A stretch of 64,000 nt of DNA from Escherichia phage vB_EcoM-Sa45lw, in sequence record MK977694.1. The stretch is one strand, 5' to 3'. A program made the translations under genes and the position numbers. This document shows, piece after piece, positions 23,105-29,340 of the stretch. Position 1 is the first letter of the stretch. Each line of letters opens with the position of its first letter. The notes beneath the pieces are model-generated. The model ran no database searches. It was not told the DNA's origin and saw only the letters and a list, made by a program, of their open reading frames with translations.

Positions 23105-23108
23105 CAAT

Positions 23109-23139
23109 GGGGACCGAAAGGTCCCCATGTTTTTATTTA
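23109..23139. terminator. Bidirectional terminator between gene 54 and the convergent alt.-3-like ORF
   Basis: GGGGACC-GAAA-GGTCCCC hairpin followed by TTTTTATTT on the plus strand; A/T-run on the other side. Confidence 0.6.
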
Positions 23140-23423
23140 CGGAATGAAATAAAAGCAGCAACTGAAGCAACAGAGGTTTCTTCAATATAAACCTCAATTT
23201 TTACCGGAGCTTCTGACTCAAATTTACCTGTTACTACACCCTGAAAAATACTTTCAGTCTGTTCTGGCTTTGAAAAATTTTCAGAAGGAAAAATTCCAAA
23301 CTTTTTATCGGTTCCGAAAATTTTAATAAATTCATCGTAAACTGCTTCATTAAAAGCATTATCAGCAGGAATAACGCCTTCAACTACAAGTTCTTGACCT
23401 AAAAAGCGCAAAGAAGATTTCAT
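23133..23423 (-). CDS. Hypothetical protein (T4 alt.-3 position)
   Basis: 96-aa ORF with SD GAGGA that lies inside the 54-bp repeat/early promoter. Confidence 0.7.
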   Translation of the reverse strand: MKSSLRFLGQELVVEGVIPADNAFNEAVYDEFIKIFGTDKKFGIFPSENFSKPEQTESIFQGVVTGKFESEAPVKIEVYIEETSVASVAAFISFRK

Positions 23424-23430
23424 TTTGTGT

Positions 23431-23484
23431 TCCTCATGTTATGTCAGTAAGACTACTATAACACAACACGAGGGACTTGTAAAC
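23431..23484 (-). promoter_or_regulatory. Early promoter plus SD; copy 1 of an exact 54-bp direct repeat
   Basis: Minus strand reads GTTTAC, 18-bp spacer, TGT-TATAGT extended -10, then GAGGA. Identical 54 bp occur at 39225-39278. Confidence 0.6.
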
Positions 23485-25541
23485 TACATTTTGAACTTTT
23501 TAGACATTCCGTTAATGTTAACCAAAGAAGCTAAGATTTGAGAAACTTCGTTTTCCTCTTCTTTTGATTCTTCTACAAGGAATTGATTAAATCCAGCCAT
23601 TGGACGAACTTCACCAGTTTCCATTAGATGGTCGCCATCATATACTGATTCTTCTAATTGTTCAGAAGGAGGAACGATTGTACCTTCGATTAGATACTTG
23701 TTATAAGCAGTTTCTTTCATAAAGTAAGTACTTACTTTATTAATCTTCAGTAAAATTCCACGTGGTAGAATAACTTCAGCTTCTGATGGAAATCCTGATA
23801 AATGACCCGGAACGATAACTTTAACTCGTTCAGCTCCTTTAATTACCATACCCACGCTAGTTTCAGCATCTTCATTAGCATATGTAGAATGACTACCCAT
23901 ATGCATCAAATCTTCTGCATCAACGGAACCTTCTCCTTCACCAGAAAATACTGCTCCGGAATCATCTAAGGCCATATAATTTTTACCATACTCACCAAAG
24001 ATATTTGGTTTAAGTGATGTAGATACGAAGTTCTTGAAATAGAACATTTTATTTTCAATGTTATGACGCAAAGTTTTAAAAGTAACTTCTTGTCCACGGT
24101 AAAGTGTAGTTCCTGGAGGAAGAACTGAACCTTTAGCAAACGCAGAATCCATAGTCTCGATGTGCTTAATAGCGCGCTCCATGTATTCTTCACGTGTAGA
24201 ATCAGGTTTACCTAAAAGGAATGAGTTCATTTCAACATACGAATCTGCACAATAATCTTCAATTACATCAGATTCAGCCTGAGTCAATCCTTTTGGAGTT
24301 ACTTCAGTGCTTGCATATTCATACGCCTGAGCAGCGGATTCATCAATTAATTTATAAATGCCATTCATGACAAATTGAATAATAGCTGTCTTTTCATCTG
24401 GCGTAGCTTTAGAACCTTTAACTAAATCATTGACAATTTTCTTAATAACATCAAAGCTATTAGAAATATTAATGTCAGCAAGATCGCTTAAAATTTTATC
24501 AGTTTTATAATCAAAGAATTCTTTATTCTTTAAATATTCTTGAGAACCTTGATATGTTATATCGCTCTGCAGCTTGATAGATGGATCACGTAAACGTGCA
24601 TGGGCTAATGCAATATGATTTCGGAAGCTTTCTAGTTCATAATCACTAGATTTAAAACGAGAAGCACTCCTCATACCACCGATAGCTCCTTTGCCGAAGT
24701 TTGAACCAATCTGAATAACGCCAGAGTTCATTGGTCCTTCTGCTTTATATACCGGAACTTTAGATTCAAACTCTTGATATTTCTTAGCAGCAAAGCTATC
24801 ACCCTGAAGTGAAGCATCAACAGTAGAATATTGAGCTTGTGCTGCTAATCGACGACTAATTTTAGTTTTCTGAATAACAGCTTGATCCGTACGCTTATCA
24901 TTTTCTAAAGCAATAGAAGCAGCAACTGCGACAGCTTTAGGAACAGCATTACCTGTTTTAACGTCTACATAAACATCACCGACTTTCGATTCAACTTTTG
25001 TGAATAACTCAGTTGAAATAGGAGGTACACCTGGAATGTCTTCTAAATTGGCATTTTTACGGTAAACCATAATATATGCATATTTCTTATCATAGTCCCA
25101 GATTTCCTTTAAAAGAACATATCGACCTGCTCCTTTAGTACGTACTAAACGGTCAGCAATAACTTGCATTTGACGAGCAGCGCCATTTGTTTTACTTTTT
25201 AGTACGCGGAATAGGCATGCATCAATTTTATACTGTTTCATTGTTTGAAGAGCAGTATCAAAAACCGCATTAATGACACCAATTGGATTTCCACCCAAGT
25301 TTTTAAGCTTAACTAACGATAATTTCTCATTAACACCTATCATTACGATATGCATCATTTTGTCGCCTGGCTTAACGTTTTTATTCGTATCACCGCCAGA
25401 GGTGTATGTACAAAATCGAAATCCAGGAAGAACGCTTTCTTCACCGGCTTGAATAGCAAAAATTTGAGGTATTTTATGCTTAGGATTTAAGTTAACAACC
25501 GGCGCCGAAGCGCCGTCAAATAATTCTGTAATAAGTTCCAT
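23484..25541 (-). CDS. Alt-family ADP-ribosyltransferase paralog, intact
   Basis: 685 aa; N-terminus MELITELFD... nearly identical to Alt over about 65 aa; C-terminal domain carries R (LYRGQ), STS (FVSTSL) and EAEVILPRG motifs. Confidence 0.85.
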   Translation of the reverse strand: MELITELFDGASAPVVNLNPKHKIPQIFAIQAGEESVLPGFRFCTYTSGGDTNKNVKPGDKMMHIVMIGVNEKLSLVKLKNLGGNPIGVINAVFDTALQTMKQYKIDACLFRVLKSKTNGAARQMQVIADRLVRTKGAGRYVLLKEIWDYDKKYAYIMVYRKNANLEDIPGVPPISTELFTKVESKVGDVYVDVKTGNAVPKAVAVAASIALENDKRTDQAVIQKTKISRRLAAQAQYSTVDASLQGDSFAAKKYQEFESKVPVYKAEGPMNSGVIQIGSNFGKGAIGGMRSASRFKSSDYELESFRNHIALAHARLRDPSIKLQSDITYQGSQEYLKNKEFFDYKTDKILSDLADINISNSFDVIKKIVNDLVKGSKATPDEKTAIIQFVMNGIYKLIDESAAQAYEYASTEVTPKGLTQAESDVIEDYCADSYVEMNSFLLGKPDSTREEYMERAIKHIETMDSAFAKGSVLPPGTTLYRGQEVTFKTLRHNIENKMFYFKNFVSTSLKPNIFGEYGKNYMALDDSGAVFSGEGEGSVDAEDLMHMGSHSTYANEDAETSVGMVIKGAERVKVIVPGHLSGFPSEAEVILPRGILLKINKVSTYFMKETAYNKYLIEGTIVPPSEQLEESVYDGDHLMETGEVRPMAGFNQFLVEESKEEENEVSQILASLVNINGMSKKFKM

Positions 25542-25544
25542 GAT

Positions 25545-27638
25545 TTATCCTTGAACGAACTTGTAAGGCATGTTTGTAATATCTATGCAAGACGCAATAA
25601 TTCCAAGAGATGATTCTACTTTCTGTTTAATATTTGATGAAACAAATGATGCAAAGTCAACTCTGTCTTCTATTTCAATATCACCTGTCATTGCAACCAA
25701 TTCACCAGTTTCCATTAAATGGTCTCCATCATAGATTACCGATTCGGTGAGCTCTTCCGTGGTCATAACTTCAGCTTGAATGAGTTTTGTATTATTAGAT
25801 GTTGTTCCGTCATTATTAGAAGCATCAGTTATTTTATTAACCTTGACCATCAATCCGCGTGGTAGAATAACTTCAGCTTCTGTTGCTATTCCGAGACTTC
25901 CTGGATATACAACATTAACTTTATGAGCTCCATCAATTGCCCATCCTATTTGAACTTTAACATATTCAGGATTTTCTTTATACGCTCTTATTTCGTTTGG
26001 ATTAATAGTTATTCCTTCTTCATTTTTATCAACTGTTAATTCGTTACGAGCTTCTGGTTCTAAAAGACCAATACCAGCATGTGTGATTCCAAAACGTCCA
26101 AAAATGATAGGAGTTAAAGAAGTAGATACAAAATTTCTGAAGTAGAACACTTTATTTTTAACTAACGCTTCATATATAGGAGCAGTCATACTTTGAGCAC
26201 GATAAACTGTAATGCCTTCTGGTATACGGTCACCATTTTCAAAAGCTGAATCTAAGTTATTTATAGCAGATTCAATTTCTTTTTCACTCATTACATCGTA
26301 TCGTTCTGGATTGTAACGACCTAAAAGAAGATTATTGATGTCAGTATATCCTGAACCGCAATATTCTCTAATGCCACGCTTTTGTGATGGAGTATATTTA
26401 GAACCATCGCGGGCAATAGTAATATCAATCATTGGACCAGCACCAATTCCAGAAAAACTGTAAATCATTCGTTTGAGGAATTTAGTTTTTGCTGCGTTCC
26501 AGGAATTTTTAGTTATTTCTTCCCAGACTTCATCTGGTTGTCCTTTACGATTTTTATTATGATTAGCAAGCCATTTATCTTTATAATCTTCAAAGAATTG
26601 ATTTACAGCTGCTGCGTATTTCTCTAAACATTTTATTGAAGTAGTTGGTTCATTTTTAATTGCATTAAAAATTACTTCTTTAATTTTTTCTGAAACTTCA
26701 CCGACTTGACTCATTGGAAAGAATTTATAATCATAGTGAAGTTCATCTGCCGTTCCTTCAGCAATAATTTTTGCTGCCTTTGTTTTAGAAGCTAATGAAT
26801 TAATTCCAATTTTCATTTCTTCTGCTTCGGGAATTAAAGGTGCAGTAGCTGGTTTATTAAAATTAGCTGCTGTAGATTCATACTTCTGGAATAATTCACT
26901 TTCAAATCTAGAAGATTCCAATGACTGACTTTGTGCAATTGCTCTACGGGAAATTTTAACTTTAACGATTACGGCTTGGTCAGAACGTTTATCATTTTCT
27001 TGTGCAATAGATGCAGCAATTGCCTCATTTTTGGTTACTTGAGCTCCAGTATCTTTATTGATATAAACATCACCGACCTTCGATTCAACTTTAGTAAAAA
27101 GCTCGGTGCTAATTTCTGGAACTCCTGGAATGTCTTCTAGTGATACATTTTTACGATGTATAAGAATATATGCATACTTTTTATCGTAATCCCAGAGTTC
27201 CTTAAGAAGGACGTATCTGCCACCTGAACGACTGCGGATGAGTCTATCAGCAATAAGTTGAATTTGTCGAGCTTGACCGGCGGTTTTAGACTTAAGAATA
27301 CGAAGCATGCAGGCATCAATTTTATATTGACGCATTGTTTGCATTGCAACAGTAAAAACTGAATTGATATAATTAATCGGGCTTGGACCAAGACCTTTTA
27401 ATTTAGCAATTGAACCTTTAGCAGTTAATGTAAAAGGAACAATGTGCATCATTTTATCGCCCATCTTTAAATCACGATTAGTATCACCTCCAGATGTATA
27501 GGTACATAAACGAAAGCCTGGTTGTTCAATTGCATCATCAACATGAACTGAAAAAATTTGTGGTATTTTCTTCTTTGGATTTAAGTTTGTAATCGGAAGA
27601 GTAGTATCTTCGTCAAATAATTCTGTAATAAGTTCCAT
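25545..27638 (-). CDS. alt: Alt, virion-packaged ADP-ribosyltransferase
   Basis: 697 aa; N-terminus MELITELFDEDTTLPITNL matches recalled T4 Alt; R (VYRAQ), STS and EAEVILPRG motifs. Confidence 0.93.
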   Translation of the reverse strand: MELITELFDEDTTLPITNLNPKKKIPQIFSVHVDDAIEQPGFRLCTYTSGGDTNRDLKMGDKMMHIVPFTLTAKGSIAKLKGLGPSPINYINSVFTVAMQTMRQYKIDACMLRILKSKTAGQARQIQLIADRLIRSRSGGRYVLLKELWDYDKKYAYILIHRKNVSLEDIPGVPEISTELFTKVESKVGDVYINKDTGAQVTKNEAIAASIAQENDKRSDQAVIVKVKISRRAIAQSQSLESSRFESELFQKYESTAANFNKPATAPLIPEAEEMKIGINSLASKTKAAKIIAEGTADELHYDYKFFPMSQVGEVSEKIKEVIFNAIKNEPTTSIKCLEKYAAAVNQFFEDYKDKWLANHNKNRKGQPDEVWEEITKNSWNAAKTKFLKRMIYSFSGIGAGPMIDITIARDGSKYTPSQKRGIREYCGSGYTDINNLLLGRYNPERYDVMSEKEIESAINNLDSAFENGDRIPEGITVYRAQSMTAPIYEALVKNKVFYFRNFVSTSLTPIIFGRFGITHAGIGLLEPEARNELTVDKNEEGITINPNEIRAYKENPEYVKVQIGWAIDGAHKVNVVYPGSLGIATEAEVILPRGLMVKVNKITDASNNDGTTSNNTKLIQAEVMTTEELTESVIYDGDHLMETGELVAMTGDIEIEDRVDFASFVSSNIKQKVESSLGIIASCIDITNMPYKFVQG

Positions 27639-27662
27639 GTTATCCTCTCTAGTGTTTATTCT

Positions 27663-27670
27663 ATTTATAA
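27663..27670 (-). promoter_or_regulatory. T4-type late promoter upstream of alt
   Basis: TATAAATA on the minus strand about 25 bp upstream of the alt ATG, followed by SD AGAGAGGA. Confidence 0.55.
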
Positions 27671-27694
27671 AATTAAAGGCCCGAAGGCCTTTAA

Positions 27695-27880
27695 TTAATA
27701 GAGAGCTAAAAGAGTACGATATACTTCAAACTTTGGACCTTTTTCATATGGATCAAATCTTTCCGTGAATTCATCATATGCTAGTTTATCTGGGAATTCA
27801 AGAATAACCTGCGATACCGCAGTGGAAACATCTCCACCTTCTTTTTGAGCCACGACAATTGTTTCTAAGTAAGCTTTCAT
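27695..27880 (-). CDS. Hypothetical small protein between gene 30 and alt
   Basis: 61-aa ORF, ATGA-coupled to the gene 30 stop. Confidence 0.55.
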   Translation of the reverse strand: MKAYLETIVVAQKEGGDVSTAVSQVILEFPDKLAYDEFTERFDPYEKGPKFEVYRTLLALY

Positions 27881-29340
27881 AAACCAGTTACCTCATGAAA
27901 ATCGCCAAATACATCTTCGAACGTATTAGCTTTAGTTTTATCTTCACGTAAACGAATTGCAATTGGAAGAAATAGCTTAACGTAATCAGTACGTCCATCT
28001 AATTTTACCCAGCCGTTGCATTCGCACTCTAGAATTTTTCCAATATAATAATTTTGGTTTTCCATAATGCGAGTACGATCAAGTTCATGCGATTTTATAC
28101 CGGCTTTATCTTTTAAGCCTGAACCAGCATTTACTTTAATTTTTCCACACTCTGATTCAAGAATGAAACCACCTGCTTTAGTAGGGTCTTTACGGTGAGG
28201 ATAAATTCCTACAATTTTTAAATCAACATCAATTACTTCTTTAAATTTATAAAGATTTTTTGAACGAGCATTTTCCCATAATCCATCGATATTTTTGAGA
28301 ATAATACCTTCAAGACCTTGGTCAATATACTTTTTATAAATTACCTTAGCTTCATCTAGGTTATTTACTATCTGGTTTTCAATTAAAATTACTTTATCAT
28401 AGCCTGATGTCATTTGTTCTAGTTTAGAAAAACGTACATCATATTTTAAACGAAATGCTGGAAGACCATATATTTCTACTAATGGAACATAGTCCCAGAC
28501 CTGAAACTTCATGCATTGTGCTTCTTTTTCAGAAATGGTTCCCTTTAAAGATTTATTAGCGATTCCATTAGAAGTAGTACGTGATTCAGCTACTTCGGCG
28601 AATTCTTTAGCTTTACTAATTTCAGGATAAGCATCAAAAAGAAAATCTAGGCCTTCTGGTTCCTTTTCAACTTGCTCATGGTATACCAATTCGCCATCAA
28701 TTAACACACCTTCTGGATGAATCTGGCGAGCTTCTGCAGTCATTTTGATTAACTCTTCCTTGAGAAGATCTAATCCTAGATATTCATTACCAGCTCGTGA
28801 TAAAAGACGAACATCATCTAATTCATCACCTCTGACTTCAGCAAAGCACCGAGCTCCATCAGCTTTTAACTGGGCAAAAGCTGGAAATTTGATATTCTTA
28901 TTAATGCCTTTTTCATCATAAGAACTTGCCAGCATTTGAGGTTGTTCAGGAATTAAACCTGGCCAAACTTTGTTTGCAATAGATACTGATGCACCACATT
29001 CAAGGTCTCGCATCATCACCCGACGCAAAACTTCAACATCATCTTTTTTACCGTCAGCAATATATCCAGTTAATTCCTCAATTGCCGCATTTCCGGTCAA
29101 TTTCCGAGTAGCTAACGTGAATTCAATGAAGTCAAGCATATCGGTAAGAGTCAACATTCCAAAACTCTGGGTAGTAATACCCGGTTTAGGCCATTTCTTG
29201 ATATAATACTGTAACCCACGAGAATAAGTCAGACGATATACTCGTTTAAGCAATTCATTATCTTTATTCTTTTCAAGAATTGCTTGCTTCTGCTTAGTTG
29301 AACCAATAGATGCTATTTCGTTCAGAATTTTAAGAATCAT
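27877..29340 (-). CDS. 30: ATP-dependent DNA ligase gp30
   Basis: 487 aa, T4 DNA ligase length; N-terminus MILKILNEIASIGSTKQKQAILEKNKDNELLKRVYRLTYSRGLQYYIKKWPKPG; adenylation lysine motif KADGAR. Confidence 0.97.
   Translation of the reverse strand: MILKILNEIASIGSTKQKQAILEKNKDNELLKRVYRLTYSRGLQYYIKKWPKPGITTQSFGMLTLTDMLDFIEFTLATRKLTGNAAIEELTGYIADGKKDDVEVLRRVMMRDLECGASVSIANKVWPGLIPEQPQMLASSYDEKGINKNIKFPAFAQLKADGARCFAEVRGDELDDVRLLSRAGNEYLGLDLLKEELIKMTAEARQIHPEGVLIDGELVYHEQVEKEPEGLDFLFDAYPEISKAKEFAEVAESRTTSNGIANKSLKGTISEKEAQCMKFQVWDYVPLVEIYGLPAFRLKYDVRFSKLEQMTSGYDKVILIENQIVNNLDEAKVIYKKYIDQGLEGIILKNIDGLWENARSKNLYKFKEVIDVDLKIVGIYPHRKDPTKAGGFILESECGKIKVNAGSGLKDKAGIKSHELDRTRIMENQNYYIGKILECECNGWVKLDGRTDYVKLFLPIAIRLREDKTKANTFEDVFGDFHEVTGL

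Follow-up and report, generated by a model that had tools for sequence, protein, structure and literature searches.

The window analyzed here, a stretch of 64,000 nucleotides from Escherichia phage vB_EcoM-Sa45lw (MK977694.1), contains two adjacent genes of the Alt family, whose namesake is the virion ADP-ribosyltransferase (ART) Alt of phage T4. The upstream gene is a T2/RB14-type allele of alt itself, encoding 697 amino acids (aa), and the downstream gene, hereafter the paralog, encodes a second Alt-like protein of 685 aa. In our view, the region is probably the normal, undeleted alt locus of Tequatrovirus, composed of alt and an anciently duplicated Alt-like gene, the product of which would be an injected ART with targets of its own. 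The tandem arrangement as such is already known. Alt paralogs in T4-like phages were listed by Nolan et al. 2006 (PMC1524935), and a 2026 paper described two Alt-like paralogs with 43% identity and suggested their functional divergence (PMC13600099). Consequently, the novelty implied by the first-pass annotation of this DNA does not hold, because the locus is the standard undeleted one: 401 phage records carry an intact copy, the gene is annotated as alt.-2 or Alt-like, and Dhakavirus has its own altA/altB pair. When compared with T2 and the RB phages, as that annotation had proposed, the same intact 685-aa gene is found at the same position in RB14 (alt.-2, YP_002854530) and T2 (T2_202, BBC14817), with 97–99% protein identity. 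It is also the same gene as the second copies labelled “Alt-like RNA polymerase ADP-ribosyltransferase” in RB51, RB68, Sf23, wV7, phiD1 and others. This is likewise the RefSeq product name of the RB14 gene, and several ortholog records are still labelled “hypothetical protein”. The pair of alt and paralog also occurs in T2, RB14, JoYop, pSs-1 and phiD1.

The two minus-strand open reading frames (ORFs) of 697 and 685 aa stand as first described (Table 1), as does their assignment to the R-S-E type ARTs. The PF03496 (ADPrib_exo_Tox) profile matches Alt with 129.9 bits (E 9.6e-38) and the paralog with 71.5 bits (E 7.5e-20, residues 416–620), both above the gathering cut-off of 23.4 bits. The motifs (V/L)YR(A/G)Q, FVSTSL and EAEVILPRG, which had been recognized from the letters, are present in both proteins and supply R480 (YRAQ), S505-T506-S507 (FVSTSL, from 503) and E587-A-E589 (EAEVILPRG) in Alt, and R482 (YRGQ), S507-T508-S509 (FVSTSL, from 505) and E587-A-E589 (EAEVILPRG) in the paralog. 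The catalytic Arg/Ser/Glu positions of the 685-aa protein, which the first-pass annotation had named as a place where its assignment could fail, are conserved: R482, S507, S509, E587 and E589 do not vary among the 22 sequences of alignment A1, and the R/S/S/E/E residues occur in at least 54 of 56 whole-family representatives (alignment A2). An AlphaFold2 (AF2) model of the paralog has a mean predicted local distance difference test score (pLDDT) of 75, with ~77–92 in the ART region, and its Foldseek matches include Vis (E 3e-6, target-normalized template modeling score, TM, of 0.63), Certhrax, CDTa, C3, iota Ia and VIP2. Profile score, catalytic residues and ART fold, the three features of the R-S-E clade, are thereby all found in the paralog. 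The same fold and Arg/STS/ExE signature are shared by T4 ModA and ModB as well as by Vis, CDTa, iota Ia, VIP2 and C3bot, but all of these, being either small early proteins or toxins secreted by bacteria, lack the Alt N-terminal domain, the prohead protease motifs and the virion context. Within this ART clade, ExE goes with arginine specificity, as opposed to the QxE of C3, and the ExE of the paralog is consistent with the known arginine chemistry of Alt. The residues preceding this motif do differ between the two proteins (SGFPSEAE in the paralog vs. LGIATEAE in Alt). Among solved structures, sequence searches gave no match for the paralog and only marginal CdtA/iota matches for Alt; the PDB set searched contains no structure of Alt, and no NCBIfam model matches either protein.

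Alt and the paralog share 41% identity (BLASTP), and the accompanying E value of 6e-160 excludes chance as the source of this likeness. The identity is distributed unevenly among four modules. Residues 1–237 of the paralog are 67.5% identical to the window Alt, the helical center is only 16% identical in a forced alignment (residues 238–415), the ART domain is 35.5% identical (residues 416–625), and the C-terminal tail is 46% identical (residues 626–685). When profiles built from paralog-type sequences were compared with profiles from Alt-type sequences using hhalign, both the N-terminal domain (probability 100%, E 6e-110) and the ART domain (probability 100%, E 2e-42) aligned, whereas no remote homology was detected for central residues 238–418 (probability 0.6%, E 0.096). 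From the segment identities and the profile comparison together, it follows that three of the four modules are common to both proteins and that the categorical difference is confined to the central module. The first-pass annotation had drawn the boundaries differently, with an almost identical N-terminus of about 65 residues, divergence through most of the remainder and a different C-terminal domain. The sequence alignments support none of these. Residues 1–65 are 66% identical, the same as residues 66–237 (68%), and a distinct 65-residue leader was rejected, as identity is uniform at ~67% throughout residues 1–237. The N-terminal domain, ART domain and tail all align, and the C-terminal catalytic domain belongs to the same family in both proteins, such that the difference resides in a central helical region of ~180 residues. 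Helices are predicted throughout this region by AF2 (pLDDT 80–93), and the region is a candidate module for target recognition or for an adaptor role. Sequence and model show that each protein is made up of an Alt-specific N-terminal domain, a helical center, a probably arginine-specific R-S-ExE mono-ADP-ribosyltransferase domain and a C-terminal tail. The full-length Alt family profile phrog_802 covers residues 1–685 of the paralog (E 2.1e-256; alt, E 1.2e-272), and the paralog likewise has the ~237-aa Alt-specific N-terminal domain and the family location, flanked by gene 30/alt.1 and alt.-3/gene 54 and preceded by a late promoter. Relative to T4 Alt (NP_049811, gpAlt), the paralog shares the N-terminal domain, the R-S-ExE ART, ITE-6 and C-terminal LxE motifs, a tail containing YDGDHLMETGE and a late promoter context; it differs in having only 41% identity overall, a central ~180 residues without detectable homology and other residues before ExE.

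It is evident from its conservation that the paralog is a maintained gene. The ORF is intact at exactly 685 codons in 6/6 genomes (the window, RB14, T2, JoYop, pSs-1 and phiD1), and the protein is 97–99% identical across the phages compared. Pairwise ratios of nonsynonymous to synonymous substitutions (dN/dS, Nei-Gojobori) range from 0.026 to 0.064, with dS reaching 0.31, and by segment amount to 0.016 for the N-terminal domain, 0.077 for the center, 0.034 for the ART domain and 0.027 for the tail. By this measure the paralog is under strong purifying selection over its whole length, and a pseudogene or chance ORF was therefore rejected. The idea that the gene is a decaying duplicate, with a frame that is open fortuitously or was inactivated only a short time ago, as in T4, could draw upon the destroyed copy found in T4 and 91 records. 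Nevertheless, a 685-aa frame in DNA of ~35% G+C that is intact in all six genomes, present in 401 records, kept at dN/dS 0.03–0.06 and in possession of all its catalytic residues leaves this scenario with a negligible probability; the selection analysis effectively refutes it.

The first-pass annotation was right that T4 has only short ORFs at the position of the second gene (alt.-1, 61 aa; alt.-2, 67 aa), and their relationship to the paralog can be specified. T4 alt.-1 (NP_049810) corresponds to paralog residues 1–~55 and alt.-2 (NP_049809) to residues 62–116, with ~95% nucleotide identity. Two lesions set the T4 sequence apart from the intact gene: a 1-nucleotide (nt) deletion in an A-run near nt 160, which shifts the frame, and a 1,699-bp deletion, the ends of which lie within two copies of the 9-bp sequence CTAAAAAGT. 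Both copies are present in 5/6 intact genomes. According to the note in the T4 record, alt.-1/alt.-2 stem from an old duplication in which only the beginning of alt was copied. However, the frameshift and the repeat-bounded 1,699-bp deletion relative to the intact gene point to a remnant of a full-length paralog rather than a partial duplication of alt. T4 exhibits the derived state, the gene having been lost through the 1-nt frameshift together with a microhomology deletion between the 9-bp repeats. The 1,690 bp lacking in T4 were matched with 94–100% nucleotide identity by 401 phage records, among them T2, RB5, RB14, RB51 and many Tequatroviruses of Shigella, Yersinia and Salmonella, as compared to 91 records with the T4-type deletion junction. 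By these record counts, most Tequatroviruses have the second copy intact.

The duplication itself is ancient. In Dhakavirus IME08, the same tandem pair (altA/altB, ADI55518/ADI55517) lies between alt.1 and alt.-3, with a downstream copy of 708 aa, and the paralog is the positional counterpart of altB. The Alt protein of Dhakavirus JS10 (P0012, 707 aa) is also among the closest homologs of the paralog outside its 90% cluster (48% identity). The Dhakavirus pair differs by ~50% sequence divergence and by central/insert regions of variable length. Since IME08 has the same tandem pair, the alt duplication predates the split between Tequatrovirus and Dhakavirus. This bears directly upon the question of redundancy. 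The paralog could conceivably be a back-up, packaged and injected like Alt to modify the same targets (RNA polymerase alpha and others) and thereby provide an extra dose or robustness. Alt and the paralog are certainly alike in architecture, catalytic motifs and processing motifs, T4 manages with Alt alone, and Alt probably modifies several proteins beyond RNA polymerase (PMC5512222). On the other hand, a redundant copy should decay or homogenize, but instead the paralog is 97–99% conserved with a dN/dS of ~0.04, its ART domain still shares no more than 35% identity with that of Alt and its center is unrelated, and the pair has been kept since before the genera separated. We therefore consider a redundant back-up unlikely. 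The unrelated center, the 35% identical ART domain and the differing residues before ExE, in a protein that is nonetheless 97–99% conserved, rather suggest, as the first-pass annotation had reasonably assumed, that the target set of the paralog is most likely different from that of Alt.

T4 Alt ADP-ribosylates the alpha subunit of E. coli RNA polymerase (Arg265) and other host proteins. It is a prohead-core protein of ~40 copies per head, is trimmed by the prohead protease gp21 and is injected with the DNA (PMC9958956, PMC9026906). Mass spectrometry located the gp21 cleavages of T4 Alt after ITE-6 and LTE-619 (PMC5694885). The corresponding motifs of the window Alt are ITE-6 and LTE-632. The paralog begins with MELITE/LFD (the slash marking the cleavage site), the same as Alt up to and across the site, and its L629-E630-E631 motif, followed by S, aligns with LTE-619 of T4 Alt. 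Among the 56 family representatives, 53 retain the N-terminal Glu (E6) and 49 have L/I two positions ahead of it; 54 retain the C-terminal Glu (E631) and 47 have L/I at -2. Beyond E631, the model predicts disorder (pLDDT <50), although this tail contains the conserved YDGDHLMETGE. The N-terminal domain is a confidently modelled unit when taken alone (AF2 pLDDT 87.5, predicted TM-score 0.84), and among 1.84 billion representative proteins phmmer detected it in no more than 69, always at the N-terminus. Proteins with this domain are mostly 600–712 aa, and 54/56 of those scanned also carry PF03496. Its homologs carry a precomputed PF26846 assignment. From these features, the N-terminal domain is a putative capsid-targeting or retention module, and we infer that, together with the two propeptides, it constitutes a packaging/processing apparatus common to Alt and the paralog, so that the paralog, too, is most likely an injected ART. 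Following the course known for T4 Alt, it would enter the prohead core, undergo gp21 trimming after E6 and E631, be retained in the head and be injected with the DNA, whereupon its conserved motifs predict ADP-ribosylation of host proteins on arginine using NAD+.

An N-terminal MuF/gp7 domain (Phage_Mu_F, PF04233) preceding the effector received no Pfam support, and membership in the MuF-fused class of head-packaged effectors was set aside on that ground. As a separate observation, a model of the N-terminal domain (window 24831–25541) matched, beyond Alt homologs, large uncharacterized myovirus proteins in the BFVD structure library (query-normalized TM ~0.5, E 1e-7 to 1e-5), some of which bear zeta-toxin, ParB or deaminase domain annotations. 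As a lead, the fold might be a general delivery module for injected effectors.

Several points weigh against an injected paralog with its own targets. The (L/I)xE motifs are short and occur several times per protein, and conservation at the two aligned positions, albeit suggestive, falls short of proof of cleavage. Activity, targets and packaging have been demonstrated for T4 Alt only, and target divergence is deduced from sequence divergence alone. The paralog is also dispensable, at least on laboratory hosts, since it is missing from T4 and from 91 records in all. Literature searches found no virion proteomics, enzymology or transcript mapping for the paralog; we attribute this shortage of functional studies in the searchable literature to the model phage T4 lacking the gene. 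This same lack of proteomic evidence for packaging, along with the late promoter context, would agree with a paralog that is not a virion component and instead acts as a late cytoplasmic ART upon host or phage proteins of the producing cell. Such a role is difficult to reconcile with a conserved Alt N-terminal domain that is nearly confined to the Alt-like family, with both gp21 motifs at aligned positions and with the same conserved propeptide-like tail, and we accordingly hold it to be very improbable. Injection with the viral DNA remains our preferred interpretation.

The arrangement of expression signals suggests that Alt and the paralog are produced together. Upstream of both genes, TATAAATA occurs just once, as the T4-type late promoter box at 27662–27669; the first-pass annotation had rightly recognized this promoter, with a position (27663–27670) that was off by one base. 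A late promoter occupies the corresponding position in T4 (L001 8532). The alt stop codon (TAA, 25545–25547) and the paralog ATG (25539–25541) are separated by only 3 nt (25542–25544), as described previously, and the paralog has its own Shine-Dalgarno sequence. A promoter/terminator scan detected no minus-strand terminator-like site between the genes. Because of the single upstream late promoter, the lack of an intervening terminator-like site and the 3-nt gap, alt and the paralog form one probable late transcription unit, in agreement with the co-transcription originally proposed, and both would be transcribed late from the promoter at 27662–27669. The placement of the AAGGA sequence within the last alt codons further suggests that translation of the paralog is coupled to that of alt. 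Upstream of the promoter, there is a hairpin (AAAGGCC-TTCG-GGCCTTT) that is missing from the list of the consensus terminator scan and was found by direct reading. Its T-run overlaps the alt late promoter. This terminator-like hairpin would insulate alt from upstream early/middle transcription, and a conserved terminator upstream of alt has been reported (PMC1524935). A second exact TATAAATA occurs within the alt coding sequence (26258–26265, minus strand), a place at which T4 has none. Contrary to a single shared transcript, this internal box could supply a partly independent paralog transcript.

Table 1. Positions of the genes, protein modules and signals of the alt locus within the 64-kb window.
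Feature	Position	Strand	Remarks
DNA ligase gp30	27877–29340	minus	
alt.1 (61 aa)	27695–27880	minus	start overlaps ligase gene stop codon
Hairpin AAAGGCC-TTCG-GGCCTTT + T-run	27675–27692	minus	between alt.1 and alt late promoter; sequence reading
T4-type late promoter box TATAAATA	27662–27669	minus	upstream of alt; exact match
alt Shine-Dalgarno GAGG	27644–27647	minus	
alt (697 aa)	25545–27638	minus	ORF; T2/RB14-type allele of virion ADP-ribosyltransferase Alt
Paralog Shine-Dalgarno AAGGA	25548–25552	minus	within last alt codons, 6 nt before ATG
Paralog (685 aa)	23484–25541	minus	ORF; second Alt-like gene, ortholog of RB14 alt.-2 and T2_202
Paralog residues 1–237	24831–25541	minus	Alt-specific N-terminal alpha/beta domain
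Paralog gp21 motif I4-T5-E6	25524–25532	minus	
9-bp direct repeat CTAAAAAGT, upstream copy	25194–25202	minus	left breakpoint of T4 deletion
Paralog residues 238–418	24288–24830	minus	helical central region, no detectable homology to that of Alt
Paralog residues 419–628	23658–24287	minus	R-S-ExE ADP-ribosyltransferase domain
Paralog R482 codon	24096–24098	minus	catalytic
Paralog S507 codon	24021–24023	minus	catalytic
Paralog E587 codon	23781–23783	minus	catalytic
Paralog E589 codon	23775–23777	minus	catalytic
Paralog C-terminal gp21 motif and propeptide	23487–23657	minus	54-residue predicted propeptide (residues 632–685)
Paralog gp21 motif L629-E630-E631	23649–23657	minus	then S; aligns with T4 Alt LTE-619
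9-bp direct repeat CTAAAAAGT, downstream copy	23495–23503	minus	right breakpoint of T4 deletion
alt.-3 (96 aa, DUF5498)	23133–23423	minus	last gene of unit; Pfam E 3e-62
Bidirectional terminator-like hairpin	23107–23128		next one past alt/paralog

When examining the surroundings of the pair, it is evident that the locus is typical of the genus. The surrounding 4.8 kb are Tequatrovirus sequence, 99.1% identical to that of Shigella phage Sf23, with coverage of 80% or more in 366 phage records. Genes gp54 and gp48 lie on the plus strand, convergent on the alt locus, and tblastn found no third Alt-like copy within the 64-kb window. The small alt.1 product matches Pfam PF24647, “Phage blade protein” (E 6.8e-28). 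The end of the paralog is overlapped, immediately before alt.-3, by a site resembling an early-type sigma-70 promoter (23455–23483, minus strand; TTTACA, 17-nt spacer, TG, TATAGT), and because of this site, alt.-3 may be expressed early as well as late.

The upstream gene exhibits a variation of its own. There are two alleles of Alt, the 697-aa type of T2, RB14 and the window, found in 330 records, and the 682–684-aa T4 type. They are ~70% identical overall, with near-identical ends and a divergent center and ART domain; the window Alt is 71% identical to T4 Alt (L001 6455–8503). Along the protein this similarity forms a mosaic, as residues 1–246 and about 600–697 are ~99% identical to T4 Alt and the central/ART part ~50%. 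Which alt allele a phage has is independent of whether it carries the paralog: JoYop combines a T4-type alt with an intact paralog, and slur14 combines a window-type alt with the T4-type deletion. Three sequences of alignment A1 (P0003, P0005 and P0007), derived from Logan/ENA assemblies with 1–4 members each, have a paralog body with Alt-type residues over the first ~50, ~195 or ~220 positions. These hybrids could have arisen through gene conversion between the tandem N-terminal domains or could be chimeric short-read assemblies.

Knowledge of phage-injected ARTs comes nearly entirely from T4, a phage that lacks the paralog, and yet most close relatives of T4, including T2, carry a second, tightly conserved enzyme of the Alt type. 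To what was already known of the tandem arrangement, the current analysis adds that T4 alt.-1 and alt.-2 are products of a full-length gene disrupted by a frameshift and a 1,699-bp microhomology deletion, and that the paralog keeps both gp21 motifs, which renders its packaging directly testable by mass spectrometry. It is conceivable, albeit doubtful, that the paralog is an injected effector with a role other than the transcriptional “alteration” performed by Alt, such as ADP-ribosylating and thereby disarming a host defense or toxin-antitoxin component, or acting upon a non-canonical substrate like NAD-capped RNA, which has been assayed with T4 Alt, ModA and ModB (PMC10468400). If this were true, its absence from T4 could partly explain how T4 and T2-like phages differ in their sensitivity to host defenses.

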